The notes: generated by a model not told the origin, from the sequence alone. Shown: positions 3,318 to 41,849, counted from the first letter of the stretch. The stretch is DNA of 61,151 nt from Nostocaceae cyanobacterium (GCA_035299225.1 DATGXB010000028.1:1-61151), one strand, 5' to 3'. Translations and numbers: made by a program.

Positions 3318-3686
3318 TTTTAATTACTAGCCCACCCCTAAATTATGCTCTACTGATTTGAAGTACAACGCCAGGTTCAAATTAGGAAATTTGATGGATT
3401 GGGAAATTTTCAAATTATTATATATAGCACTCCTATATTATAGGATAATATTTAGCCATGAGCTTTTATTGTTATCTCTATTGGGATTATGGTTTTTGTC
3501 TAAAGAAGTAACCCAAAATCATCTTTTAATAATATTGAATGTCATTACATATATTTTAACATTTTTATAGATTTCTTGAATAGTTGACAACATAAAATTT
3601 ACCTCTGGTTAGAAAGATAATACAACACATCGCAAGTAAATGGAGTACAAACTTTAATCAAAAAAACTTATTTTAAAGGTGCTTCA

Positions 3687-3715
3687 CCCCTGTTCCCTGT
3701 TCCCTGTTCCTTGTT
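3687..3715. repeat. heptamer STR (CCCTGTT x ~4)
   Basis: Direct reading of tandem heptamers in the recJ/flotillin intergenic region. Confidence 0.8.
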
Positions 3716-3869
3716 ATATGTGATTAGTCTTGATTGATTGGAGAGTTAGGATAGTTAATTTTGGTAACAATAATCATCTTTTCATCCTGTAAATCCTTAA
3801 ATCCTGGACATCTTGATTCAGGCATTTTCCCTAACTATAAGGATTTCTGGTTGATTTTGGAAATATACG

Positions 3870-3942
3870 TAAGGCGGGTATTTAACAGTATAATTCTCTA
3901 TAGTTACAGACTTGGGCTAAAAATACACACCCTACACATACT
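3870..3942 (+). repeat. copy A of a 70-75-bp MITE-like hairpin element (TAAGGYGGGYATTT ... AAAATRCMCACCCTACACATACT)
   Basis: Conserved arms match the copies at 33337-33409 and 40008-40080 (minus strand). The 3' arm is 21/22 identical between copies. The two arms are imperfect inverted repeats. Ends 98 bp upstream of the 4040 start codon. Confidence 0.6.
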
Positions 3943-4039
3943 GGCGAATGCAACCAAAAATTACACTAAGTTTAAGAAAAACCGGATATTTGAATTGAAG
4001 TGATAGTTTAGATAATTAGTTGCCCAAAAGGGCAAAAAT

Positions 4040-14830: not shown

Positions 14831-14876
14831 GTGGGTATTGCTAAGAAAGTTGAAAATAGATACAAAATTATTTAAG
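14831..14876 (+). repeat. 46-bp direct repeat copy A flanking the VapBC cassette
   Basis: GTGGGTATTGCTAAGAAAGTTGAAAATAGATACAAAATTATTTAAG matches 15741-15786 (GTGGGAATTGCTGAAAAAGTTAGTAATAGCTACAAAATTATTTAAA) at 39/46 positions. Confidence 0.7.
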
Positions 14877-14946: not shown

Positions 14947-15091
14947 CTTTAAAACACCCATTCCCTCGTAGGGAAGGGGGGCAAGGGGGGTTAGGTTTTT
15001 CGGGCTTATTTGTTTCATCAAATACTTTTAAAACATCCTCTAAAGCAATGCCCACCTTTACCCTAATTCTTAAATTAAATTTAATAGTTTT

Positions 15092-15487
15092 TTATATTGA
15101 AACGGTAAGCAAGCCAAGATATTTAACAAATGGCAAAAAGTCTTTATCAGTAAATAGAAGAGAGTTTTGGTTTTGAATACAAAAAGTTGCAATAATTACA
15201 TCAACCGTTTTGCGAATAGTGATACCACGTTTGCGGAGAAATCTATAGTTATCAGCACTTCTGAGAGCAGTATCTAAGCCTAACATTTCAAAAATTGTTA
15301 GAGAAGTTAGTAAATCTTTTGCTGTGTGATATTCCGTATCTGATCGAAATCCCTGCAAAACTTCAGTCAAAATTAGATCACCAATTGCTATTGGTTCTAC
15401 TCCCAAAAGTGTATCTAGCTTATTAGTTTCCGGGGTTTCTATGCCATTAAAATAATCTATCCAGACACTTGAATCTATAATAATCAT
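15092..15487 (-). CDS. vapC: PIN-domain ribonuclease toxin VapC
   Basis: 131 aa starting MIIIDSSVWIDY with a PIN acidic-residue pattern. It overlaps the upstream antitoxin ORF by one base (ATGA). Confidence 0.8.
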   Translation of the reverse strand: MIIIDSSVWIDYFNGIETPETNKLDTLLGVEPIAIGDLILTEVLQGFRSDTEYHTAKDLLTSLTIFEMLGLDTALRSADNYRFLRKRGITIRKTVDVIIATFCIQNQNSLLFTDKDFLPFVKYLGLLTVSI

Positions 15488-15740: not shown

Positions 15741-15786
15741 GTGGGAATTGCTGAAAAAGTTAGTAATAGCTACAAAATTATTTAAA
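15741..15786 (+). repeat. 46-bp direct repeat copy B flanking the VapBC cassette
   Basis: See copy A. Confidence 0.7.
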
Positions 15787-21789: not shown

Positions 21790-22032
21790 GTGAAACTTAT
21801 GATTGTCCCAGAACTTGAACAACAACTTTTGCAACTTTCCCCCAACGATAAACTTTATATTATCCAACTACTAGCACAAAGCCTAACTATACAAAATAAA
21901 AATAATGAAATCCTCCCAAAAGAACCAAGTAAACTTTCAGAGTTTTTTCGTCAATCTCCACTAGTAGAAGTTGCTGAAGAATTAGACCTGAGCAGAGATA
22001 CAAGTTTACCTCGTGATACTTTTATCCCATGA
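21790..22032 (+). CDS. type II antitoxin (partner of the downstream PIN toxin)
   Basis: 80 aa. Overlaps the downstream PIN gene by 4 bp (ATGA). Confidence 0.5.
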   Translation: MKLMIVPELEQQLLQLSPNDKLYIIQLLAQSLTIQNKNNEILPKEPSKLSEFFRQSPLVEVAEELDLSRDTSLPRDTFIP

Positions 22033-22451
22033 CATACCTTCTTGATACCTGCTTAATTTCTGAAATTATCGCTAAACAACCAAATCAACAAGTTTTAGAT
22101 TGGCTAGATGCTCAACTTCCAGAAACACTTTATCTTAGTGTAATCACAGTTGGCGAAATTACTAAAGGTATAAGTAAACTTCCCACATCTAAACGCAAAG
22201 AATCTCTAACAAAATGGTTAAATGAAGCCCTACCCATTCGTTTTGAAAATAGAATCTTAGGTTTGGATACTTCAACAATGATATTATGGGGAAATCTAGT
22301 TGCACAATTAGAACAAAATGGGCGACCTTTACCAGTTATGGATTCTCTAATTGCAGCCATCGCTTTGCAAAACTCTCTCTCTCTTGTTACTAGAAATGAA
22401 AAAGATTTTGCTGGCACAGGAGTTGTAATCATTAATCCCTGGTATTCTTAA
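22029..22451 (+). CDS. vapC: PIN-domain toxin VapC
   Basis: 140 aa starting MTYLLDTCLISE with a PIN fold acidic pattern (D6, E43, D102...). Confidence 0.8.
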   Translation: MTYLLDTCLISEIIAKQPNQQVLDWLDAQLPETLYLSVITVGEITKGISKLPTSKRKESLTKWLNEALPIRFENRILGLDTSTMILWGNLVAQLEQNGRPLPVMDSLIAAIALQNSLSLVTRNEKDFAGTGVVIINPWYS

Positions 22452-22511: not shown

Positions 22512-23120
22512 ATGAAACTGCAAACTACTATCCAAGAAATAAAAACAGTTACCGCTTACTATACCCCAGAAGAATATTTAGAACTTGAGGAAAAAGCTGA
22601 TTTTAAAAATGAATATAGAAACGGGGAAATTATACCAATGACAGGAGGAACAACAAACCATAATAGATTGGCTGGTAATTTTTATATTTGCCTGAATTTA
22701 GCATTAAATGATTTAGAATATGAAGTTTATATTGGTGATGTAAAATTGTGGATTCCACGTTATCGGGAATTTACTTATCCTGATGTGATGGTGATTGAAG
22801 GTGAGCCTGTTTATTATGGCACAAACACTACAATAGTTACTAATCCGATATTAATTGCTGAGGTTTTATCTAAATCTACAAAAGACTATGATCGGGGTGA
22901 TAAATTTCTCTATTATCGCTCAATTCCCGAATTTAAAGAATATATTTTGATTGACCAAACTCAATATTATGTAATGCAATATGTAAAAAATGCTGAAAAT
23001 CAATGGATTTTGACAGAACATGAAACAGAAGATGCTCTATTAAATCTTTCTTCAATTAATGTGAAATTATCTTTACAGCAATTATATAAAAAAATTAATT
23101 TTCTGGAAACTATAGAATAA
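22512..23120 (+). CDS. Uma2-family (DUF820) restriction-endonuclease-like protein
   Basis: 202 aa. TPEEYLELEE...YRNGEII...GNFYICL...YPDVMV motifs characteristic of cyanobacterial Uma2 proteins. Confidence 0.75.
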   Translation: MKLQTTIQEIKTVTAYYTPEEYLELEEKADFKNEYRNGEIIPMTGGTTNHNRLAGNFYICLNLALNDLEYEVYIGDVKLWIPRYREFTYPDVMVIEGEPVYYGTNTTIVTNPILIAEVLSKSTKDYDRGDKFLYYRSIPEFKEYILIDQTQYYVMQYVKNAENQWILTEHETEDALLNLSSINVKLSLQQLYKKINFLETIE

Positions 23121-23224
23121 CTGTGGTATGGGGTGCGGAAATGTAAATCCTGATTCAGATACAGCCCGTTTCAGGTAAATGAGGTACAAATTTTTGGAAC
23201 AAACCCTTATACAAAAAGACTTTC

Positions 23225-23290
23225 AACCCTGTTCCCTGCACCGCACTGAGCGCAGTCGAAGTGTTCCCTGTTCCCTGTTCCCTACTGTAA
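23225..23290. repeat. CCCTGTT heptamer array interrupted by a 25-bp small dispersed element (23239-23263, CACCGCACTGAGCGCAGTCGAAGTG)
   Basis: The heptamer phase is broken as ccctg|element|tt. The identical 25-mer sits at the identical position in the array at 38787-38811. Confidence 0.85.
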
Positions 23291-27676: not shown

Positions 27677-28230
27677 TTTACAACACAGGAATTTAATTTT
27701 ATACAATTATTTATTAAAGTATTTTAATTATGATACAAAACCTTTCCGCAGAATTACTATATTTTTAGGGAAATACAGGCTGATCAGCATATTTCTGACT
27801 CGGAAATTAAATGATGAAAATCCAAATCCCTGCCAAATTTCTAAATTTATCATAGATAATATTTATTTTGATTGTATTGCTAGAGGTTCATTATTATTAA
27901 GACCAAAATTTATCATCATATATAATGAAAACTAAAAAACAGTAGCACAACATAAAGATAAAAGTATATAACTTCATCTATAGTTACACCTAATGATTTA
28001 ATATTGTCTAACCATAGATAGAGAATGAGTGCAGATTGACTCGATTATAGTTAGAGCAAATCTAGGTAGAATTTAACACGCTCAATTTTTTCCTAGTGAT
28101 TTTGGTTTAACTATTAAAAACCTATTTGGCAGAATTTACATTCATGTTGTGAACTCTAGATTAAACTTCAAATCAAGCCAGTAAATCTCAAGTTTCTTTC
28201 TAGAATACTGTTTCCTACTCTCATGAGGTA

Positions 28231-28297
28231 AGTAATTAGGCAGAATTAATTACTCAACTTATTTCCCTGTTCCCTGTTCCCTGTTCCCTGTTCCCTT
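28231..28297 (+). repeat. 24-bp hairpin leader (AGTAATTAGGCAGAATTAATTACT) followed by a CCCTGTT x5 array
   Basis: The same hairpin abuts heptamer arrays at 38721-38742 (+) and 36887-36908 (-) in the same relative orientation. Confidence 0.75.
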
Positions 28298-28536: not shown

Positions 28537-30543
28537 ATGAAAAAATTTACTGTAAATACAACTTTAACGGGCAAAGTTACAGATGTTCAACCAGAACAAG
28601 ACAGCTTTGTAATAAAATGCCGTAGTGGTGATGAGTTGGAGGTTCACACAGGAAAAGAAACTCAATTTAGATTTGTGAAAAATCTGGATGATATAGAGCG
28701 CGACCGTGTCCCTAGTCCTGATAACTTAAATTCCGCTTCTCCCACCGATTTAGTACGTAAATATATCCAACCTGATACCCTTGTAGTTTTACAGGGTGTA
28801 TATCAAGAAAATAATGGTAGTCGTCACTATGATGCTAAAATTATTAACTTACTGCATTCCTATCGAGGTAAAGATGAATATCTATTTGAGCAAACCCATT
28901 GGTGGCTAACACAAATTGCTCGTCTTGCAGATAGTTGGTTAGGTTATTTATTTCCAGATAAACAAGCTTATGAAATTGATGATTTTGCCCTCTATCGAAC
29001 AAATTTAAATATTATAGGTTTACCTACGGATGATACAATACAGGAATGTGCCACACTTTCTCGACTAATTTATGGTCTTTCTTCGGCTTATTTACTAACT
29101 GGTAGTGAGCGTTATATTTCCGCAGCTAGGGCTGGAGTTCAATATCAGCGCGAAACTTTCCGCAGTTTATCATCTGATGGGAAACATTGTTTTTGGGCTT
29201 TTGGTAAGCGCAAAACTATGTATAGTTATAAGTTATATATGAACTCTTTAAACGATGATGATAGAGACACAATTCCACTTTACGAGCAAATTTATGCCTT
29301 AGCTGGATTGGCTCAATATTATCGGGTTACGTTAGATTGGGAAGTGCTGGATGATATAAAGCGGACTGTTCGCACCTTTAATGATTTCTTCACTGACCCG
29401 GAATCAGAATACGGTAAAAACGCTTATGGAGATTATTTTTCTCACTTAGATTATGTTACCTTAAATTGGGATAGTCCGGCTCTGGGTAACAACCAATCTA
29501 GAAAAAATTGGAACTCTATAGGGGATCATATACCTGCCTATTTAATTAACGTGATTTTGGCATTAGAACCTTTACCAATCACTGATCATGGTAACGAAGA
29601 TATCCGCCAATTTTTAGAGACTTGTAAGAAGATTCTGAAAACAACATCCACAATTATTGTAGATAAGTTTCCCGATCCTGATCCTAATGTTCCGTTTGTG
29701 AATGAACGATTTTTTAGGAATTGGAAGCCTGACCATGAATGGAGATGGCAAAAGAACCGTGCAGTAATTGGACACAATTTAAAGATTGCGTGGAATTTAA
29801 CTCGTGTTGCTAACTATTATTACTGTTTAGCTACTAGTGAAAATGAACCAGAAAGCAAAGAATCAAAACATTTAGCTGACAAGTTGATGAAGTTGGCAGA
29901 TAAGTTAGGAATCAGGATGGCAGAGATTGGTATAGACTTATTTAGAGGGGGAATTTTCGATACTTTAGAGCGTAATCCTCAAAATGGGATGCCATTAGAT
30001 TTTCCTTGGTTCAATACTAAAGACTTTTGGCAACAGGAACAAGCTTTGTTAGCTTATCTGATTCTTCATGGTTGCAGCCAAGAAAGTCATGATCAAAAGC
30101 AGGATTATTTACGGTTAGCAAGAGAAACCGCCGCATTTTGGAATCTGTTCTTTCTCGACTTAGAAAATAAAGGTATTTTCTTCCGAGTTAGCGAAAGTGG
30201 TGATGCAATTACCTTGGGACAGTATGGCAGTAAAGGCGGACATTCTATTTCTGGATATCATGCTTTTGAACTTAATTATTTGGCTCATATTTATATCAGT
30301 GCCTATGTGACGAAAGAACCCTTTTGTTTGTATTTTAAACCTGACAGATATTGTCGCCAGCGATCGCTCAATGTTCTACCGGATTTCTTTAGACCCAATA
30401 CCCTGGAAGTCAGCAGAATCAGTATTGACGGATGCGATCGCACATCCATAGACCCGGATAATTTCCGCATTGAACTGGGAGAAACAGAATTTCAACTGGG
30501 TTCAGCCGCAGAAATCATTGTGGAATTTACACCTAAAAAATAG
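28537..30543 (+). CDS. hypothetical protein, possibly an (alpha/alpha)6-barrel AGE/glycoside-hydrolase-like enzyme
   Basis: The ORF-track start at 28453 is TTG. The in-frame ATG at 28537 has a GGCAGGA ribosome-binding site. Tentative fold assignment only, from an N-terminal beta-rich segment followed by helical-repeat sequence. Confidence 0.3.
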   Translation: MKKFTVNTTLTGKVTDVQPEQDSFVIKCRSGDELEVHTGKETQFRFVKNLDDIERDRVPSPDNLNSASPTDLVRKYIQPDTLVVLQGVYQENNGSRHYDAKIINLLHSYRGKDEYLFEQTHWWLTQIARLADSWLGYLFPDKQAYEIDDFALYRTNLNIIGLPTDDTIQECATLSRLIYGLSSAYLLTGSERYISAARAGVQYQRETFRSLSSDGKHCFWAFGKRKTMYSYKLYMNSLNDDDRDTIPLYEQIYALAGLAQYYRVTLDWEVLDDIKRTVRTFNDFFTDPESEYGKNAYGDYFSHLDYVTLNWDSPALGNNQSRKNWNSIGDHIPAYLINVILALEPLPITDHGNEDIRQFLETCKKILKTTSTIIVDKFPDPDPNVPFVNERFFRNWKPDHEWRWQKNRAVIGHNLKIAWNLTRVANYYYCLATSENEPESKESKHLADKLMKLADKLGIRMAEIGIDLFRGGIFDTLERNPQNGMPLDFPWFNTKDFWQQEQALLAYLILHGCSQESHDQKQDYLRLARETAAFWNLFFLDLENKGIFFRVSESGDAITLGQYGSKGGHSISGYHAFELNYLAHIYISAYVTKEPFCLYFKPDRYCRQRSLNVLPDFFRPNTLEVSRISIDGCDRTSIDPDNFRIELGETEFQLGSAAEIIVEFTPKK

Positions 30544-30553
30544 GCAAGCAGTT

Positions 30554-31213
30554 ATGGCCACCCGAATGCTAGAAGGACGAAAAATTGCCATTCTTGTAGA
30601 AAGTGAATTTATCCCAGAGGAAATTGCCGCCTATCAGCACCGTTTTAGCGAACTTGGGGCAACTGTGCATTTTATGTCTCGGCTATGGGGTTACGAAAGT
30701 CTGCGTTTTGTGAGTGATGTTGATAAGGTGGGCAAGTCCTTGGAATACCTAGATGTAAACATTGATTTTCAGAATGTAGACCTGAATGATTATGCTGCTG
30801 TAATTGTTTCTGCTGGTTATACCAGTGTACGTCTGCGTTATTTTCAGCCTCCGCAAGATTGTCCTATTAGTCCAGAACAGACACGCACAGCGCCAGCAGT
30901 CCAATTTTTTGCCCAAGCAATGGTAAATCCCAAAATTGTCAAAGGGGCGATTTGTCATGGATTATGGCTATTGACACCCATGCCAGAACTATTGCAAGGA
31001 AGAAAAGTTATCTGTCATGAAGTGACCCTTGCAGATATTGCTAATGCTGGTGCCGTTTATGTTCCCTCTGATTCGGGAATCGTGGTGGATGGTGACTTAG
31101 TGACAGGACGATCTGGTGATGATGTGGGTTTATTTATTGAGGCGATCGCTCAACTCATCATCCAAAAAAATGCAGAATCAGCCCAAACCCAGGAATTAGT
31201 AGCTAAATTGTGA
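30554..31213 (+). CDS. DJ-1/PfpI-family protein
   Basis: Nucleophile elbow motif AICHGLWLL plus a DJ-1/PfpI-like flavodoxin fold pattern. Start refined to ATG 30554. Paralog of 33500-34141. Confidence 0.75.
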   Translation: MATRMLEGRKIAILVESEFIPEEIAAYQHRFSELGATVHFMSRLWGYESLRFVSDVDKVGKSLEYLDVNIDFQNVDLNDYAAVIVSAGYTSVRLRYFQPPQDCPISPEQTRTAPAVQFFAQAMVNPKIVKGAICHGLWLLTPMPELLQGRKVICHEVTLADIANAGAVYVPSDSGIVVDGDLVTGRSGDDVGLFIEAIAQLIIQKNAESAQTQELVAKL

Positions 31214-32650: not shown

Positions 32651-33259
32651 ATGAAACGCTGTATCAATTATTATCAAAATTTAATCGCTGATTATTCAAA
32701 AACAGGGTTAGTTTCTCCAGAATTAGCCGAAAAGCTCATTTTTGAAGCTGAAAAATTTATTGCTTTAAAAGAAGACCATTTTCCCGAAATCACTCCCGAT
32801 TATTCATTAGAACAGATTGAACAAGAAAATAAAGCTTGGTGGCCTACTCATTGTGAGGCATTGAGACAGGGTAGAGGAGATATTTTAACTGGAGAATATC
32901 GCCAAGAATTGGTTTATTTTTGTCAAGATGGCCCATACTACGGATTAGAACAACAAAAAGAAAGGGAGCAGCATTGGTGGGCTTTAATCGCTCAACCTGG
33001 TGTAACTATGTGCTGGCCAATTGTCATGTTTCATGGTGAATTTGTTTGGTTTGAATGGAATTGTTTAGATAATGAAACTAACGAAACAATTGCTAAAGGT
33101 AGTGTTGCTTGGTTGCGTCGAGGTCATCGTGGTGGATGTTATATCAAGGGTGAACAATTGACTTTTTATCGTGATGTTTTTGCTCCTAATGAACTTTTGA
33201 AATTAATGAGTACATCTAGTACAACAAGTCAAAGGTCAAAAGTCAAAAGTCAAAAATAG
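32651..33259 (+). CDS. hypothetical protein (possible NTF2/SnoaL-like fold) with STR-encoded C-terminus
   Basis: 202 aa. The last 10 codons are encoded by GTCAAAR heptamer repeats (33228-33255). Confidence 0.3.
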   Translation: MKRCINYYQNLIADYSKTGLVSPELAEKLIFEAEKFIALKEDHFPEITPDYSLEQIEQENKAWWPTHCEALRQGRGDILTGEYRQELVYFCQDGPYYGLEQQKEREQHWWALIAQPGVTMCWPIVMFHGEFVWFEWNCLDNETNETIAKGSVAWLRRGHRGGCYIKGEQLTFYRDVFAPNELLKLMSTSSTTSQRSKVKSQK

Positions 33260-33336
33260 AAAAAGCTTGTCTAATAACCCTTTCAGACTTTTGAGGCTGG
33301 TTGCTTATTTCCACAATTCTGCACTAGGTAAATTCA

Positions 33337-33409
33337 TAAGGTGGGCATTTCCTATCATTTTTCGTTTGGAATTAGAATTTTTTTCAAAAATACCCACCCT
33401 ACACATACT
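33337..33409 (+). repeat. copy B of the MITE-like hairpin element
   Basis: TAAGGTGGGCATTT ... AAAAATACCCACCCTACACATACT. Ends 91 bp upstream of ATG 33500. A (CCCTGTT)10 array follows directly. Confidence 0.6.
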
Positions 33410-33412
33410 TTC

Positions 33413-33483
33413 ACCCCTGTTCCCTGTTCCCTGTTCCCTGTTCCCTGTTCCCTGTTCCCTGTTCCCTGTTCCCTGTTCCCTGT
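33413..33483. repeat. perfect (CCCTGTT)10 heptamer array in 5' leader
   Basis: Ten uninterrupted copies, ending 17 bp before the DJ-1 paralog start codon. Confidence 0.9.
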
Positions 33484-33499
33484 TATAAATACAAAATTA

Positions 33500-34141
33500 A
33501 TGGAGGATAATATGGCTACTAATAGTAAAGGTAAAATAGGTGTACTGATTGAAGAACATTTTGACCCCTTTGAGTTTCGGTCTTTTAATGAATACTTTCC
33601 TCAACAGGGTTATCAAGTTGAATATATTTCTCACTTATGGGGAAATAAAGCAATAACTTTTCACGCTAATTCAGAAGATGGAGTTATTAAAGAACAGGTA
33701 ACTGTAACTACAGAGGTTAATGATATTAATCCTGCCGATTATAAAGCGATAATTTGTATTGGTGCTTACGCTATGGATCGGTTGAGATATGAGGTAAATG
33801 TCAGAAAGGGTGAACCAAATCAAGCACCAGCAGTTGTGTTTATTCGTCAAGCTATGCAAGAACCTAATGTGAAAATAGGGGTAATTTGTCATGGGTTATG
33901 GCTACTTTGTGCTGCGGATATTTTGGAAAATCGGCGAGTAACTTGTGCTCATAATATTTTGGTGGATGTGGAAAATGCTGGGGCGGATATTATCTACGAA
34001 AATGATTTAGCTGCTGATATTGTGATTGATGAAAATTTAGTTACGGGCAGACATCCTGACCTTGTATATAAGTTCATGGAAACTTTGGTGAGAGAAGTTG
34101 AGAATAAGCAGCGCAGTCTTCATGCTGCTATGACTGTTTAA
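33500..34141 (+). CDS. DJ-1/PfpI-family protein (paralog of 30554-31213)
   Basis: VICHGLWLL nucleophile elbow. Shared HLWG and RLRY motifs. The ORF-track start at 33341 reads through the STR, so the ATG at 33500 is the more likely start. Confidence 0.75.
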   Translation: MEDNMATNSKGKIGVLIEEHFDPFEFRSFNEYFPQQGYQVEYISHLWGNKAITFHANSEDGVIKEQVTVTTEVNDINPADYKAIICIGAYAMDRLRYEVNVRKGEPNQAPAVVFIRQAMQEPNVKIGVICHGLWLLCAADILENRRVTCAHNILVDVENAGADIIYENDLAADIVIDENLVTGRHPDLVYKFMETLVREVENKQRSLHAAMTV

Positions 34142-34275
34142 AGTTTTTATAGCAGGGAACAGGGAACAGGGAACAGGGTTAAAAGTCTCTTGCTATAAGC
34201 TTTGTTCCAAAAATTTGTACCTCATATACCTGAAACGTGCTGTAGTTTCTGAATGCTCAAAAAGGGATATCAATT

Positions 34276-36804
34276 ATGGCTAAGATTCCCGTGCAGTTTA
34301 CCTATTTTACAGGTATTAAAAGAGCAATTTTTAGTAATCTTCGTTTAATAGGCAGTTGGGATGAAAAAGGTCGCTATTCTCAACAATGGCAATCTTTAGA
34401 TATGCAACCAATGACAGGGGAAGATGGTTGTCCCTGCTTTACAGCAACAGTGGAGTTTGATGATTCTCAAATTGGTTGGTTATTTCGCTGGGGTGTAATG
34501 CTAGATTGTCCCGCAGGTAATAATTTGTGGGGTATCCCAACGGAGATTCACGATCGCAATTCAAGCGATCGCTATCGCACTTTTTCTTTACAATCTGCTA
34601 ATGCTACTCACCCTCAACAAGAAATATATTATCTATCTGATAGTCGCCAACTAGGATCACAAAAATATTATCTTCCTGGCCAATCTCAACCAAGTATCCG
34701 CTTTGCTGTCTGGTCGCCAAATGCCCAAAATGTAGAAGTTGTATTTGGTAACACCAGTAGCGGTTATATTGCTGATGATTATTTTCACAATGATCCTGAT
34801 TTTGGCATGAATCCTGACTTGGGCCCATTTCCCATGTTCAGAAACCAGGAGGGGATTTGGCAAACTGATGTGCAAGTATCACCAGAATTAACCGATTTCT
34901 CCCGTTTTGATCATCTTCCTTATATGTTCAGAATTGTGAATGAGGGAGGACGGGTGGTTTATCGTACTGATTTATATTCTCGTTGTCAAATTGGGAAAGG
35001 TAATGTTAATCCTGATGGTAAACCTTTCTCTTCTAGATATGCAGATAAATACGGTAAACCCTTTTCAGGAGATTATCAAGATTTAGATGGGACTAAAAGT
35101 TGTTCTGTGGTGATTAATCCAGATACGGTAACTAGACAGTTTCTTGAACCGGACTGGTCAAAATTAGAATTTATCCCAGCAGAAGAGTTTTGGAGTCATG
35201 AGTTTTCACTGGAAAAACCTGTTCCCCAGCGTGTGGAAGATTTAGTTATTTATGAACTTCATGTCGGGTCATTAGGGTATGGTCATGATAAACCGGGAAA
35301 TTTTGCGGATGCGATCGCTTTATTACCCTATTTAGTCGAATTGGGAGTTAATGCTGTCGAACTTTTACCAATGGCAGAATTTCGAGATGAGGTCAACTGG
35401 GGATATGAAACATCTCACTATTTTGCCCTAGAATATAGCGCCGGTGGTCGAGATCAACTAAAGCATTTTATCAGAGAATGCCATCGTCATGGGATTGCAG
35501 TCATTTTAGATGTAGTGTACAACCATTTCAATCCTGATGGTGAACGGGCAGAATGGGCTTATGATTCGGATCTTCCCGAACATAATTTCTATTACTGGTA
35601 TGAAGGCAATTCTACTGATTACTTCTACCCAGATGGTAAACCTTTCCCGGAAGGTGGCTATGTTGATAATATGTCTACCGGTTACGCACCTCGATTTTAT
35701 GAAGAGAAGGTGCGACAAATGTTTATTAGCAGTGCAGTAGCTCTAATTGAGGAATTTCATGTAGATGGATTCCGGGTTGATCAAACCACTTCCATGCACC
35801 TATACAACCAACTGCACGCCGATGGTAGACCTGTGGGTAATGCTAATATTTTTGGGGCTAAGTTCCTGCGAGAATGGACAAGGACAATGAAGCTAATCCG
35901 ACCAAATGCCATTCTCATTGCTGAGGATCATTCTGATTGGGAAGCAGTGACTCAATTACCTGATGTTGGCGGTTTGGGCTTTGATGCGGCTTGGTATGCC
36001 AACTTTTATCATCATTTAATTGGTGATGCTAGACCAGGAACAGAATACGCCAAATTAATTCCTACTGCTGGATACGGTACAGACGAACCTCTAGCTATGG
36101 ATAAATTTGCTGGGGTGCTCGGCTGGTCTGGTCATAACAAGGTTGTCTACCATGAATCCCATGATGAAGCAGGTAATTCTTATTATGAACTAGGAGGCCA
36201 GAGAGTTGAATCTAGGCGGACGATAGTAGCGGCGGTTAATGCAGCGCCCCTGATTGGTGAAACGCGACGTTATGGTGAAGCCCGTTCTCGCTTTGCTTTT
36301 GGAATGTCTGTATTGTCGGCTGGTACGCCAATGTTTTTGATGGGTGAGGAAATTGGCGCACAACAACCCTACAGATACAGCGATTTTATCAATAACCGAG
36401 AGGATTTATTAGGCGATCGCCTAACTCATGGTCAACATCTATTCCGGTTTTACCAAGACCTGATTCACTTGCGGCTTAATCATCAAGGACTCCGTTCTCA
36501 CTGGATTGATCTGATCCATGTTCATAATGCCAATCGCGTTATTGCCTTCAAACGTTGGGACGTAAGTGAAGAATTATTGATTGTAGCTAGTTTAAATAAT
36601 CACCCCTTCCATTCAGGTTATACCATTAACAATTCCCGAATCGGAGATGGTCAATGGCGGGAAATATTCAATAGTGATGCCTCACTCTACGGAGGAGATA
36701 ATATCGGCAACTTTGGATCTTCTATTTCTGCAAATAATGGATCTATTCATCCCATCATCCCCGCTAACGGATTTGTTGTGTTCCGCAAACTCACTACCCT
36801 TTAG
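34276..36804 (+). CDS. GH13 alpha-amylase-family glycoside hydrolase with ~300-aa N-terminal extension
   Basis: GH13 conserved regions AVILDVVYNHF (region I), GFRVDQTTSMH (region II, Asp nucleophile), and a catalytic-domain Glu/Asp pattern downstream. 842 aa. Confidence 0.75.
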   Translation: MAKIPVQFTYFTGIKRAIFSNLRLIGSWDEKGRYSQQWQSLDMQPMTGEDGCPCFTATVEFDDSQIGWLFRWGVMLDCPAGNNLWGIPTEIHDRNSSDRYRTFSLQSANATHPQQEIYYLSDSRQLGSQKYYLPGQSQPSIRFAVWSPNAQNVEVVFGNTSSGYIADDYFHNDPDFGMNPDLGPFPMFRNQEGIWQTDVQVSPELTDFSRFDHLPYMFRIVNEGGRVVYRTDLYSRCQIGKGNVNPDGKPFSSRYADKYGKPFSGDYQDLDGTKSCSVVINPDTVTRQFLEPDWSKLEFIPAEEFWSHEFSLEKPVPQRVEDLVIYELHVGSLGYGHDKPGNFADAIALLPYLVELGVNAVELLPMAEFRDEVNWGYETSHYFALEYSAGGRDQLKHFIRECHRHGIAVILDVVYNHFNPDGERAEWAYDSDLPEHNFYYWYEGNSTDYFYPDGKPFPEGGYVDNMSTGYAPRFYEEKVRQMFISSAVALIEEFHVDGFRVDQTTSMHLYNQLHADGRPVGNANIFGAKFLREWTRTMKLIRPNAILIAEDHSDWEAVTQLPDVGGLGFDAAWYANFYHHLIGDARPGTEYAKLIPTAGYGTDEPLAMDKFAGVLGWSGHNKVVYHESHDEAGNSYYELGGQRVESRRTIVAAVNAAPLIGETRRYGEARSRFAFGMSVLSAGTPMFLMGEEIGAQQPYRYSDFINNREDLLGDRLTHGQHLFRFYQDLIHLRLNHQGLRSHWIDLIHVHNANRVIAFKRWDVSEELLIVASLNNHPFHSGYTINNSRIGDGQWREIFNSDASLYGGDNIGNFGSSISANNGSIHPIIPANGFVVFRKLTTL

Positions 36805-38372: not shown

Positions 38373-38720
38373 AAGTAATATTTCCTTGTGTTAAGAGCGT
38401 GTAACTATTCTTAACAAAGATGTAACAAAATCATGATATTTATTGCAGCTTGATTTGAACAATTGTAAAAATCATGAAATTAATCAAAGTTACAATTAGT
38501 AAAGTGTTGACTAAAAATACCTATTACCAAAATCTTCCTTTAAAATCCTGAAACCCTAGTTTTATAAACATCTTAGGAATTAAAGGGTTAAAGCATACTT
38601 GATAAATTAGCACTTATGCCTATCGTTAAAAATGCGTTTTTATTGAGAATTAAAGATTAACTAATCAGGATTATTCCGTGAGTAACGACTCTCACAAAAT
38701 ATTAAGCCAGATGCCGTTAA

Positions 38721-38835
38721 GTAATTAAGCAGAATTAATTACCCAAACTTTTTTCCTGTTGCCTATTGCCTGTTCCCTGTTCCCTGCACCGCACTGAGCG
38801 CAGTCGAAGTGTTCCCTGTTCCCTGCTGTAAGTCT
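38721..38835. repeat. hairpin leader, then AGGCAAT/CCCTGTT array carrying the identical 25-bp dispersed element (38787-38811)
   Basis: The 25-mer is 25/25 identical to 23239-23263 and inserted at the same ccctg^tt position. Confidence 0.85.
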
Positions 38836-40007: not shown

Positions 40008-40080
40008 AGTATGTGTAGGGTGGGCATTTTCGGTAAAACACTGAATAAAAGCGGAAAATTTTCGGAAATGCCCACCTCAG
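40008..40080 (-). repeat. copy C of the MITE-like hairpin element (reverse orientation)
   Basis: The minus strand reads ...GAGGTGGGCATTT-loop-AAAATGCCCACCCTACACATACT, 22/23 identical to copy B. It fills the gspE-GT intergenic region and ends 9 nt upstream of the GT start codon. Confidence 0.6.
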
Positions 40081-40151
40081 TATTTTTCCAAAATCAAACC
40101 GGATTCCTATATCAGTATCATAGTTTTTAGGAAATGGTATTACCACTTTCT

Positions 40152-41849
40152 CTACAGCGCAGTAATTTGGCTTTCCATTGCTGGAACTGCTGCTACTTGT
40201 AAATGAGGTTTAAAATGGTGTTCACGATTAAAAACACTATGAGGTAAAACTCTCAAAACCTCTTCGATGGTCGTTACTCCAGTTGTCACCTTTTGCGCTG
40301 CTGCTACACCAAAAGAAGTAAAATTTATCTCCTTTAAATAACGATTTAACTGAGTCATTGTTCCTTCATAAATTAACTCTCGCACTCTATCATCTACATC
40401 TAATAATTCTACAATTGCTTCCCGTCCTAAATACCCAGAATTAAAACACTTAGGACAGCCTCGACCCCGTTTCCAACTCTTGGTTGTAGTTGGTGTTGCT
40501 TCTAATCCTAGTCTACGTAAATCTGTGGCTGTAGGTGTATAGGGTTCTGCACAGTGGGGACAAACTCGACGGACTAAACGCTGTGCCACTATGCCCAAAA
40601 GTGCATCACTAATTAAACCAGGGTCGGGGCCAATATCTTTTAACCTGGGAATTGTACCTACAGCATCATTTGTATGTAAAGTAGTAAATACTAAGTGTCC
40701 AGTTAAAGCTGCTCTAACTGCTGTTTCTGCTGTTTCTGCATCCCGAACTTCTCCCAACATAATTACATCCGGGTCTTGACGGAGAATCGCCCGTAAACCC
40801 GCAGCAAAGGTCATTCCGGCGGCTTCGTTAACTTGGGTTTGGGTAATTCCTGCTAAGACGTATTCTACTGGATCTTCTACTGTGACGACGTTAACGGATT
40901 CTTTTGCTACATATTGTAAACTGGTGTAGAGAGTGCTAGTTTTTCCTGAACCTGTGGGACCAGTGAGAATAATCATGCCCTGTGGTTCACTTAACCATCT
41001 TTTATAAGTCTCTAATGTAGAACCGGAAAAGCCAAGTTTATTCATATCGGTGAAGGGGTTACGCTGTGGTAGTAAGCGTATTACTACTTTTTCCCCACCT
41101 ACACAGGGGAGGGTGCTGACCCGCATATCTAAACCTACTTCTGCCAAATCACTGGTATTATATTTTTCACCAATGCGACCATCTTGGGGACGGCGACTTT
41201 CAGCAATATCAATTTCTGACATGACTTTGAGGGCTACTACCACTTTCCGGCTGATTTCTAGAGGCAGGGTAGTAATGTGACGTAATACACCATCAATCCG
41301 GTAGCGGACTCTTAACCCATCGGGCATGGGTTCTAGGTGGATATCACTAGCACGGTTGCGTAAAGCTCCACTGATAATGGTTTTAACTCTTTCTATTTGG
41401 TCTGAGGCTTTGGAAAGATAGAGTTCGGTGATTTCTGTGATGTTTTCTGATTCTGATTCTTTGGTGAGGGGGTTAACTAGGGAGTCGGCGCTAATTTTAC
41501 TCAGGTCTAGATTTTGGGTGATGTACCAAGCTTTGTAACTTCTTTCTGTGATGGGGATGATTTTGATTTCTGTGGAAGTGCGATCGCCTAATTTTTTAAT
41601 TTCTTCTGGTGTTAATACCACTGGACTCCCCAAATAGTAACAATTACGCCACAACAACAAGGGAATCACTGGCGGTAATTCCTGGGGATTGGGGAATAAT
41701 TTAAAAAACCGAACGCTAACTTCCGAGTCTAAAAATTCCAGATTGATTTTTCCTGTCTCATCTATTAACAGTGTCAATGCTTGTTGACAATCAATTATAC
41801 CCTTTTTTAACTCCTGCCAAGGATTTAAGGGACTATCAAATAGTTGCAT
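40152..41849 (-). CDS. type II secretion / type IV pilus assembly ATPase (GspE/PilB family)
   Basis: Walker A GPTGSGKTST, Asp and His boxes, and a tetracysteine motif CPHC...CPKC. 565 aa. Confidence 0.85.
   Translation of the reverse strand: MQLFDSPLNPWQELKKGIIDCQQALTLLIDETGKINLEFLDSEVSVRFFKLFPNPQELPPVIPLLLWRNCYYLGSPVVLTPEEIKKLGDRTSTEIKIIPITERSYKAWYITQNLDLSKISADSLVNPLTKESESENITEITELYLSKASDQIERVKTIISGALRNRASDIHLEPMPDGLRVRYRIDGVLRHITTLPLEISRKVVVALKVMSEIDIAESRRPQDGRIGEKYNTSDLAEVGLDMRVSTLPCVGGEKVVIRLLPQRNPFTDMNKLGFSGSTLETYKRWLSEPQGMIILTGPTGSGKTSTLYTSLQYVAKESVNVVTVEDPVEYVLAGITQTQVNEAAGMTFAAGLRAILRQDPDVIMLGEVRDAETAETAVRAALTGHLVFTTLHTNDAVGTIPRLKDIGPDPGLISDALLGIVAQRLVRRVCPHCAEPYTPTATDLRRLGLEATPTTTKSWKRGRGCPKCFNSGYLGREAIVELLDVDDRVRELIYEGTMTQLNRYLKEINFTSFGVAAAQKVTTGVTTIEEVLRVLPHSVFNREHHFKPHLQVAAVPAMESQITAL

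Follow-up and report, generated by a model that had tools for sequence, protein, structure and literature searches.

The stretch of DNA analysed here (the window, 61,151 nt) is a single 61-kb contig of a Nostocaceae cyanobacterium (GCA_035299225.1, DATGXB010000028.1), with a G+C content of 38% and frequent HIP1 sites and heptamer arrays. It contains three copies of a hairpin-forming unit of 73 nt, c1 (3870-3942, + strand), c2 (33337-33409, + strand) and c3 (40008-40080, - strand), whose nature and origin are considered below; a fourth copy, L001, is located in a sister genome. The neighbouring genes are functionally unrelated and encode RecJ, an SPFH/flotillin protein, DJ-1/PfpI proteins, a GT28-like glycosyltransferase and a T2SSE ATPase. 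Left and right, as well as 5' and 3', refer to the strand on which the unit was first read, and the opposite strand is termed the GTAG strand. The relatives used for comparison include a conspecific strain (L056, a Logan assembly), whose flotillin is 99% identical to that of the window, the sister metagenome-assembled genome (MAG) GCA_035298905.1, with ~90% identity, and a metagenome bin of the Joint Genome Institute (JGI), with ~89-93% identity.

The three copies had been located at these coordinates by a first-pass annotation, which is confirmed in this respect, and the window holds exactly three 73-nt units. The 16-mer CCACCCTACACATACT occurs three times with at most one mismatch, compared with a chance expectation of 0.23 at up to three mismatches, and none of 100 shuffled sequences reached the observed number of matches. 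A profile built from the copies recovers c1-c3 with E-values of 4e-20 to 5e-18, and the same profile detected no further copy, degenerate or otherwise, in the whole 61 kb. The partial arm proposed near position 15045 is at chance level, with 11 matches of the 12-mer arm at up to two mismatches against 6.4 expected and a profile E-value of 8.4.

Each unit consists of two 11-nt inverted arms (GGTGGGCATTT and AAATGCCCACC), separated by a loop, and terminates in the constant sequence CCCTACACATACT. From CTAC onwards, the copies are identical at 11 of 11 positions, and the arms agree at 9-11 of 11 positions. The arms are conserved, as in the earlier description, but the loop is more regular than its wording suggests: the loop measures 35-37 nt in all copies and 13-25 of its 36 positions are common to paralogues, with identities between paralogues of 36-69%. 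Similarly, the extent of 73 nt is correct for the core, but c1 and c3 share another 27-28 nt to the left, beyond the original boundaries (Table 1).

On the opposite strand, all five sequences on which the comparisons of strand and structure are based read AGTATGT-GTAG-GGTGGGCATTT ... AAATGCCCACC, with the GTAG unpaired and directly 5' of the stem. The corresponding tags on the second side are degenerate in the copies (GTAA, ATAA and CTGA). Folding z-scores for c1, c2 and c3 are -2.8, -3.6 and -4.2 on the GTAG strand, versus +0.3, -0.1 and -3.0 on the strand of the first reading. The GTAG strand folds better because the imperfections of the stem are G.T/G.U wobbles on this strand and A-C mismatches on the other; accordingly, 92% of the stem cells pair on the GTAG strand versus 83% on the other strand, and in the main helix the values are 98% and 95%. 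One stem pair varies between C-G, U.G and U-A among the copies; since this, with only five sequences, does not exceed the shuffle control (140 of 500), the evidence for conservation of the stem structure is no more than suggestive. Repetitive extragenic palindromes (REPs) are recognised by an unpaired GTAG that adjoins a G+C-rich stem and by G.T pairs on the strand bearing the tag (PMC3733652, Di Nocera et al. 2013). Judged by these sequence features, the conserved arms are the stem of a GTAG-tagged REP-like hairpin, rather than the terminal repeats of a transposon.

A terminal repeat is found outside the arms. Directly to the left of the hairpin, c1 and c3 carry a 27-28-nt terminal inverted repeat (TIR), TATAGGAnTnnnRTTTGATTnnKGAAA, and the left flank of c1 is the sequence of c3 with a 1-nt indel. 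In A. variabilis, many dimers of GTAG-15 REPs are situated inside a long palindrome, TATAGGAnTnnnATTTGATTnnTGAAA--TTTCAnnAATCAAATnnnAnTCCTATA (PMC3733652), and the c3 flank TATAGGAATCCGGTTTGATTTTGGAAA fits the published left half of this palindrome with no mismatches when two positions are relaxed (0.03 matches expected). A BLAST search of 72,556 plasmids using c3 and its flank matched 15 Nostocales plasmids, by the flank only and never by the hairpin. On plasmid 2 of Nostoc sp. HK-01, the same sequence terminates a complete insertion sequence (IS), TA-TAGGAATCATATTTGATTTTTGAAAAA ... TTTTCAAAAATCAAATACTAGTCCTA-TA, the interior of which contains OrfA (HTH_33/32/23), a slippery A9 run and OrfB (DDE_3), which makes it an IS630-family element with its TA duplication. 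The c3 repeat is identical to this IS630 repeat at 23 of 27 positions, and to the repeat of a Fischerella MITE (miniature transposable element with inverted repeats) at 25 of 27. The ends of the HK-01 element equal the "host palindrome" described around the REP dimers; therefore, the published palindrome is an IS630-family terminal repeat pair.

None of the copies retains the right terminal repeat, and a search of the window revealed no second repeat, so that the units do not have the two ends of a MITE. Every copy ends at the same base, where the right repeat should begin, with unrelated DNA beyond; the next base is G, T or A, and there is no TA at this boundary. The left side of c2 has no recognisable terminal repeat, and L001 has no intact left repeat, with the ATTTGATT core alone remaining. 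Transposition by IS630 enzymes depends on two terminal repeats and generates TA duplications. Since neither a right repeat nor a right TA duplication is present, two-ended cut-and-paste transposition by an IS630 enzyme is unlikely, and the single shared truncated end within unrelated flanks indicates that the truncated unit itself was copied.

Table 1. Coordinates and composition of the repeat units and of associated features in the window.
Feature	Coordinates	Strand	Remarks
c1, whole unit	3836..3942	+	left IS630-type terminal repeat, linker, hairpin, CTAC, tail
c1, left terminal-repeat remnant TATAAGGATTTCTGGTTGATTTTGGAAA	3836..3863	+	1-nt indel relative to consensus; aligns with c3 repeat
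c1, 5' arm GGCGGGTATTT	3873..3883	+	preceded by GTAA (3869-3872), a degenerate GTAG tag
c1, 3' end	3921..3942	+	arm AAATACACACC 3921-3931; CTAC 3932-3935; tail ACATACT 3936-3942
c2, core only	33337..33409	+	arms 33340-33350 and 33388-33398; CTAC 33399-33402; tail 33403-33409
c3, whole unit	40008..40111	-	between stop of T2SSE-type ATPase gene (72 nt) and start of GT28 gene (8 nt)
c3, left terminal repeat TATAGGAATCCGGTTTGATTTTGGAAA	40085..40111	-	matches published half-palindrome
c3, 5' arm GGTGGGCATTT	40066..40076	-	11 nt
c3, 3' end	40008..40029	-	arm AAATGCCCACC 40029-40019; CTAC 40018-40015; tail ACATACT 40014-40008; + strand reads AGTATGT-GTAG-GGTGGGCATTT
Flotillin 5' block, outside the element	3956..4039	+	shared with L057 and L059; the actual upstream region of the gene
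Repeat block of ~265 nt holding c2	33221..33485	+	in order, GTCAAAR heptamers, a 78-nt stretch of different sequence, c2, TTCAC, (CCCTGTT)11

Two-ended MITEs of 140-152 nt, together with full IS630 copies bearing this repeat, are common on Nostocales plasmids. Plasmid 2 of Fischerella NIES-4106 (L048) carries the arrangement TIR ... GTAG-GGTGGGCATTGCCCACC-13 nt-GGTGGGCATTGCCCACC-CTAC-GTATAT-TIR, and four Nostoc plasmids (among L050-L054) have the same frame around GTAG-GGTGYGTTA...TAACRCACC dimers. At the left junction of c1, ATATAC-GTAA-GGCGGGTA, 15 of 18 positions agree with the Fischerella junction, ATATAC-GTAG-GGTGGGCA. At the other end, AGTATGT-GTAG of the window aligns with AGTATAT-GTAG of the plasmids, and the tail CTAC-ACATACT aligns with CTAC-ATGTATT, CTAC-GTATATT and CTAC-ATATACT of the mini-transposons. 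A profile of four plasmid MITEs matches c3 and c1 (c1 at 3840-3879, E 0.0085). Another match of this profile, at 36330-36398 inside the amylase gene (E 0.005), looks like chance. Nezha elements (Zhou et al. 2008) are summarised in PMC3184786 as IS630-family (ISNpu3-like) miniature transposons of Anabaena and Nostoc, and the plasmid MITEs would correspond to Nezha by their size, hosts and IS family.

Comparison with relatives shows that the same places can be occupied or empty. Conservation of the 85 nt preceding the flotillin ATG extends to the sister MAG and GCA_041746835.1 (L057, L059), both of which are without the element and have a different gene upstream of flotillin; c1 is located 13 nt upstream of this conserved block. 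The ~265-nt block that holds c2 sits between the ancestral stop of a 190-aa gene and the Shine-Dalgarno region of DJ-1. In L060-L063 the block is absent, and the stop of the 190-aa gene is separated from the DJ-1 ATG by 20 nt, with the same Shine-Dalgarno region. Four relatives keep the gene order 670-aa gene, DJ-1, EthD, CMD, 190-aa gene, DJ-1, amylase, and protein alignment places the ancestral C-terminus of the 190-aa gene at residue 190, with the open reading frame (ORF) of the window extending 12 codons further into the block. An 8-bp duplication around c2 (TAAATTCA / TAAATACA) was rejected as a target-site duplication, since the ancestral stop is 115 nt further to the left and the whole 265-nt block is extra. 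The c3 copy is absent before the GT28 orthologue in L005, where the upstream region is unrelated and the neighbouring gene also differs. The unit is thus small (73-107 nt), non-coding and structured, with empty sites for c1 and c2. The term MITE-like used in the first-pass annotation holds as far as a mobile-DNA origin is concerned, given the absence from the same places in relatives; it does not hold for the arms as terminal repeats, the true IS630-type repeat lying outside them and on one side only.

Evidence on the present state of the family comes from the conspecific strain. In c1, the window and L056 differ at five positions in 300 aligned nt, all inside the 107-nt unit; the chance of all five falling in the unit under random placement was calculated here as ~0.005. 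Two of the five differences turn the perfect stem of L056, GGTGGGTATTT/AAATACCCACC, into the mismatched stem of the window. These changes fit decay of a non-functional hairpin, hairpin-driven mutation, conversion between copies, or mixing of paralogous reads during assembly.

Related hairpins were found outside this lineage. The two arms alone match 39 loci in JGI metagenomes, ~24 of which are distinct copies of one abundant repeat on HIP1-rich contigs of ~50% G+C (JGI12316J15309, JGI12316J15310 and Ga0207422; L007-L045). Enrichment of HIP1 is a hallmark of cyanobacteria, and the contigs are inferred to be cyanobacterial because they are rich in HIP1. The repeat has the structure GTAG-GGTGGGCATTTCC-loop-GGAAATGCCCACC-16 nt-GGTGGGCAGTGCTC-loop-GAGCACTGCCCACC-CTACACAAAAG. 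GTAG precedes the 13-mer arm GGTGGGCATTTCC in 20 of the 24 copies, and the end CCCACCCTACACA is present in 15 of 24 (CCCACCCTAC, ~73 nt further on), with one copy ending in CCCACCCTACACATAAG. Since this repeat has the same arm and end, large-loop GTAG hairpins are not peculiar to the lineage of the window. As a repeat in its own right, it is ~200 nt long, with GTAG...CTAC ends and three to four GGTGGGCA boxes, and no description of it was found. A marine-sediment contig (L029) has a compact form, GTAG-GGTGGGCAT-TT-ATGCCCACC, as an inverted doublet.

REPs are associated with REP-associated tyrosine transposases (RAYTs), for which searches were performed with a regular expression for the HUH motif, with phmmer using eight published RAYT/TIRYT sequences, and with tblastn using two cyanobacterial RayT proteins. 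Two cyanobacterial REPtrons were examined directly. Their RayT-like genes, in Kovacikia (L067) and Gloeocapsa (L068), encode proteins 44% and 42% identical to E. coli RayT, and both are flanked by GTAG-GATGCGTTA...TAACGCATC and its inverse with CTAC, REPs that share their type with the ones carried by the Nostoc MITEs. L067 is plasmid pA of Kovacikia minuta, an unannotated record, and L068 is a plasmid of Gloeocapsa PCC 7428; the Gloeocapsa gene, with in-frame stops, is probably a pseudogene. A weak RAYT match in L010, situated in intergenic DNA rich in hairpins, could not be reproduced and was judged spurious. Genes for 256-aa Y1 transposases on Nostoc plasmids (L064-L066) have no GGTG-type REPs alongside. 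RAYT subclasses 2.4, 2.7 and 2.8 with long GT[AG]G REPs are described in cyanobacteria (PMC6006769), and TnpAREP of E. coli depends on the GTAG tag and cuts linkers at C|T dinucleotides (PMC3333891).

These observations suggest that the units probably represent a small, lineage-specific family of non-autonomous mobile DNA, mostly decaying, made up of the remains of IS630-type MITEs with a GTAG REP-like hairpin. The parent, of a design that is already known, would have been a Nezha-like, IS630-derived MITE carrying head-to-head GTAG REPs, truncated exactly where its right terminal repeat would begin. The resulting unit would comprise, in order, the left TIR (TA-TAGGAATCCGGTTTGATTTTGGAAA, intact in c1 and c3), the linker ATATAC, the hairpin with its 11-bp stem, CTAC and ACATACT. 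A RAYT encoded elsewhere in the genome may then recognise the GTAG tag and stem in single-stranded DNA and cut the adjacent linker; the shared tail ends in CT. By analogy with known REPs, spread of the unit as single-stranded DNA by a RAYT, with cleavage in the CT-ending linker, is put forward tentatively as the preferred route, although as a step that is possible rather than likely. The units are most likely selfish DNA that has no designed function at the gene starts beside it, and any effects on neighbouring genes would be incidental, for example through a hairpin in a read-through transcript.

Several observations weigh against this interpretation. No transposase of any kind is present in the window, and no RAYT was detected in the window or in ~0.48 Mb of loci besides the two RAYT loci mentioned above; RAYT genes are usually single-copy, and absence from 61 kb says little. 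The stem of the window units differs from every RAYT-adjacent REP seen, all of the GATGCGTTA type. No copy has a target-site duplication, with TA found only to the left of c1 and c3, and the species with empty sites are too distant to define exact insertion junctions. The c1 copy is kept at the same site in L056, and is thus fixed in both conspecific genomes. Described GTAG REPs are palindromes of 20-40 bp with a 5-13 bp stem and a loop of 2-20 nt, up to 27 (PMC3733652); the 11-bp stem fits this range, but the loop, about twice the longest described for GTAG REPs, and the 73-nt unit do not. The family copy number may be low: the arm-plus-tail pattern AAATRCNCACCCTACACATACT matches one locus, L001, in 185,579 species genomes, and the pattern AAATNNNCACCCTACACATACT matches nothing in JGI metagenomes, the source genome being outside both sets. 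Finally, between two species with ~90% protein identity, conservation is far stronger in the arms and tail than in the loop, a difference that could also reflect function. A scan of viral sequences gave a single match, inside a phage gene, which was regarded as chance, and a literature search for the arm and tail sequences returned nothing relevant.

The units might instead belong to a still-active, undescribed REP type, a single GTAG hairpin with a ~36-nt loop and a CT-ending tail that escaped from an IS630 mini-transposon and is copied as single-stranded DNA by a RAYT. This is considered unlikely; if true, such an active large-loop REP would belong with the abundant double-hairpin family of other cyanobacteria, and would provide a specific example of selfish DNA of one class that was carried by another and later escaped from it.

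A role as RNA was also considered. Roles of transcribed hairpins as barriers to 3' exonucleases, as processing sites between cistrons or as weak terminators have been proposed for many REPs, and the unit could be an RNA element exapted for one of them. This would agree with the strand-specific wobbles, with the stem pair that changes from C-G to U.G to U-A, with a loop that drifts at constant length between well-kept arms and tail, and with the location of the unit 49-78 nt past a stop codon at three of the four loci; moreover, Di Nocera et al. argue that many GTAG REPs act as RNA (PMC3733652). However, the covariation does not rise above that of shuffled controls, the strand that folds better runs antisense to the genes on either side of c2 and c3, mismatches are accumulating in the c1 stem, and relatives are without the unit at all three loci. 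There is also no terminator with a U-tract and no fitting Rfam family. Scans for intrinsic terminators (a G+C-rich hairpin with a 3-8-nt loop and a U run) found none common to the copies, with counts at shuffle level, and Rfam 15 gave no matches in the window, with only generic hairpins of 10-22 bits, far below threshold, in E-value mode. An RNA element is accordingly regarded as quite unlikely. Other structured elements were also discarded: inspection by eye found no RYYYAAC / GTTRRRY cores of an integron attC site and led to rejection of a tRNA-like fold, and retron or diversity-generating retroelement hairpins were set aside for want of a neighbouring reverse transcriptase.

A classical MITE moved by an IS630-family transposase, with the right end of the unit as a surrogate repeat (TGTAGGGTGGG resembles TATAGGAATCC), would explain why c1 and c3 start exactly at the outer end of the IS630-type repeat, with TA-compatible sequence before it, and would be in line with the abundance of full IS630 copies and two-ended MITEs on Nostocales plasmids. 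It is nevertheless improbable: in all copies the right repeat is missing and the shared end runs 8 nt past any TAGG-like motif, the right side bears no TA duplication, and c2 and L001 keep the hairpin and tail without an intact left repeat.

The position of the units relative to genes was emphasised in the first-pass annotation, which placed them directly 5' of genes at 98, 91 and 9 bp. The three window copies do face start codons 8-102 nt away, as any intergenic insertion would, and L001 points away from the nearest gene start, facing the 3' end of a convergent gene. The actual distances are 97 nt for flotillin, 102 nt for DJ-1 and 8 nt for GT28; the DJ-1 start is at 33512, as in relatives, and the value of 91 had been counted from an upstream in-frame ATG at 33500. 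Scans of the copies found no promoter-like sites common to them and none above shuffle expectation, and the tail has no match to NtcA (GTA-N8-TAC) or LexA boxes by eye. A cis-regulatory element, that is a shared transcription-factor site or portable promoter co-regulating flotillin, DJ-1 and GT28, is very improbable, since against the facing start codons and a weak -10-like CATACT in the tail stand a flotillin block downstream of the unit that is present without it in two species, the 20-nt spacing of DJ-1 from the gene before it in relatives, scans that yielded no promoter-like site common to the copies, the orientation of L001, the unrelated functions of the neighbouring genes and the homology of the sequence to parts of transposons. 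The flotillin block standing alone, the DJ-1 spacing, the scans for promoters and terminators and the lack of a fitting Rfam family likewise leave the proposal that the element supplies promoter or ribosome-binding-site-proximal structure unsupported.

Several features of the neighbouring regions are of separate interest. A perfect hairpin, TTGCCCAAAAGGGCAA (4016-4031), is located just before the flotillin ATG in three species and, although unrelated to the repeat, is a candidate for a hairpin with a translational or regulatory role. Beside c2, (GTCAAAR)4 at 33221-33259 lengthens the ORF 32651-33259 by 12 codons, such that tandem heptamers rewrote the C-terminus of a protein, and (CCCTGTT)11 at 33414-33488 is the array on the other side of c2. 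The DJ-1/PfpI paralogues (30470-31213 and 33512-34141) are in one gene row with EthD-like and CMD-like genes, and this row is kept in L060-L062. The T2SSE/PilB-type ATPase gene next to c3 (40152-41849) is missing at the syntenic position in L005, which has a small divergent ORF instead.

The window also contains other repeats. A 25-nt insert, CACCGCACTGAGCGCAGTCGAAGTG, within CCCTGTT heptamers is 100% identical at 23227-23277 and 38775-38825, and presumably resembles the very small dispersed repeats (SDRs) of Nostoc of Elhai et al. 2008. A dispersed repeat of ~80 nt (families D11 and I21) is found at 3620-3699, 23159-23238 and, inverted, 34201-34244, always beside a CCCTGTT array. A 68-nt repeat, TAAGTAATTAGGCAGAATTAATTAC..., at 28229-28296 and 38718-38785 (87% identical) leads into heptamer arrays. 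Two PIN-domain genes and a gene for a Uma2-family endonuclease are located at 15092-15487, 22029-22451 and 22512-23120, and a 45-nt repeat (14831-14875 and 15741-15785, 84% identical) is near the first PIN gene.

The contributions of this analysis are modest and will not surprise a specialist. A false lead has been removed, in that joint control of the flotillin, DJ-1 and glycosyltransferase genes by these hairpins finds no support, and annotation of Nostocales genomes should treat units of this kind as repeat DNA to be masked. The "host palindrome" of the Anabaena REP dimers is now identified as an IS630-family terminal repeat pair. REP-type hairpins with loops far beyond the described lengths occur in several cyanobacterial lineages, and a one-ended derivative has nevertheless arrived at several loci, a finding of relevance to the spread of REP-like DNA.

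Among known systems, REPINs consist of two inverted REPs and are thought to be moved by a single-copy RAYT (PMC3116915, Bertels and Rainey 2011). They resemble the window units in being hairpins of ~70-100 nt with conserved arms, a less conserved middle and GTAG-type ends. However, each REP of a REPIN has a small palindrome of its own, whereas the arms of the window units are not self-palindromic and their left tag is degenerate; within a unit, each arm is present a single time with no inner partner, in contrast to L029 and L048, which do have inner copies. The JGI double-hairpin repeat shares the identical arm GGTGGGCATTTCC, a loop of ~37-41 nt and GTAG 5' of the arm with the window units, but differs in its two tandem hairpins, its ~50% G+C host, its many copies per genome and the lack of an IS630 repeat.

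The Nezha-type MITEs are similar to the window units as small, non-coding elements with a strong hairpin in A+T-rich intergenic DNA and with filled and empty sites among relatives, and the 27-nt repeat of c1 and c3 matches both a complete IS630 element and the two-ended plasmid MITEs. In contrast to these MITEs, the window copies have one terminal repeat only (none in c2) and no TA duplication on the right.

Compared with the cyanobacterial GTAG REPs (GTAG-12, -15 and -16; PMC3733652), the window unit is a single hairpin rather than a head-to-head dimer, its loop is 35-37 nt instead of 2-20 nt (maximum 27), and it has a degenerate second tag, a fixed 7-nt tail after CTAC and no RAYT nearby. 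The two nevertheless share a GTAG located 5' of a stem that starts with GGTG and ends with CACC-CTAC, G.T wobbles on the GTAG strand, an intergenic location that is often just 3' of genes, and embedding in a TATAGGA...TCCTATA palindrome, as for the GTAG-15 dimers of A. variabilis. This likeness is at the level of the group rather than of a numbered family. Moreover, the stem core GGTGGGCA of the window units is identical in REPs on Fischerella and A. cylindrica plasmids.

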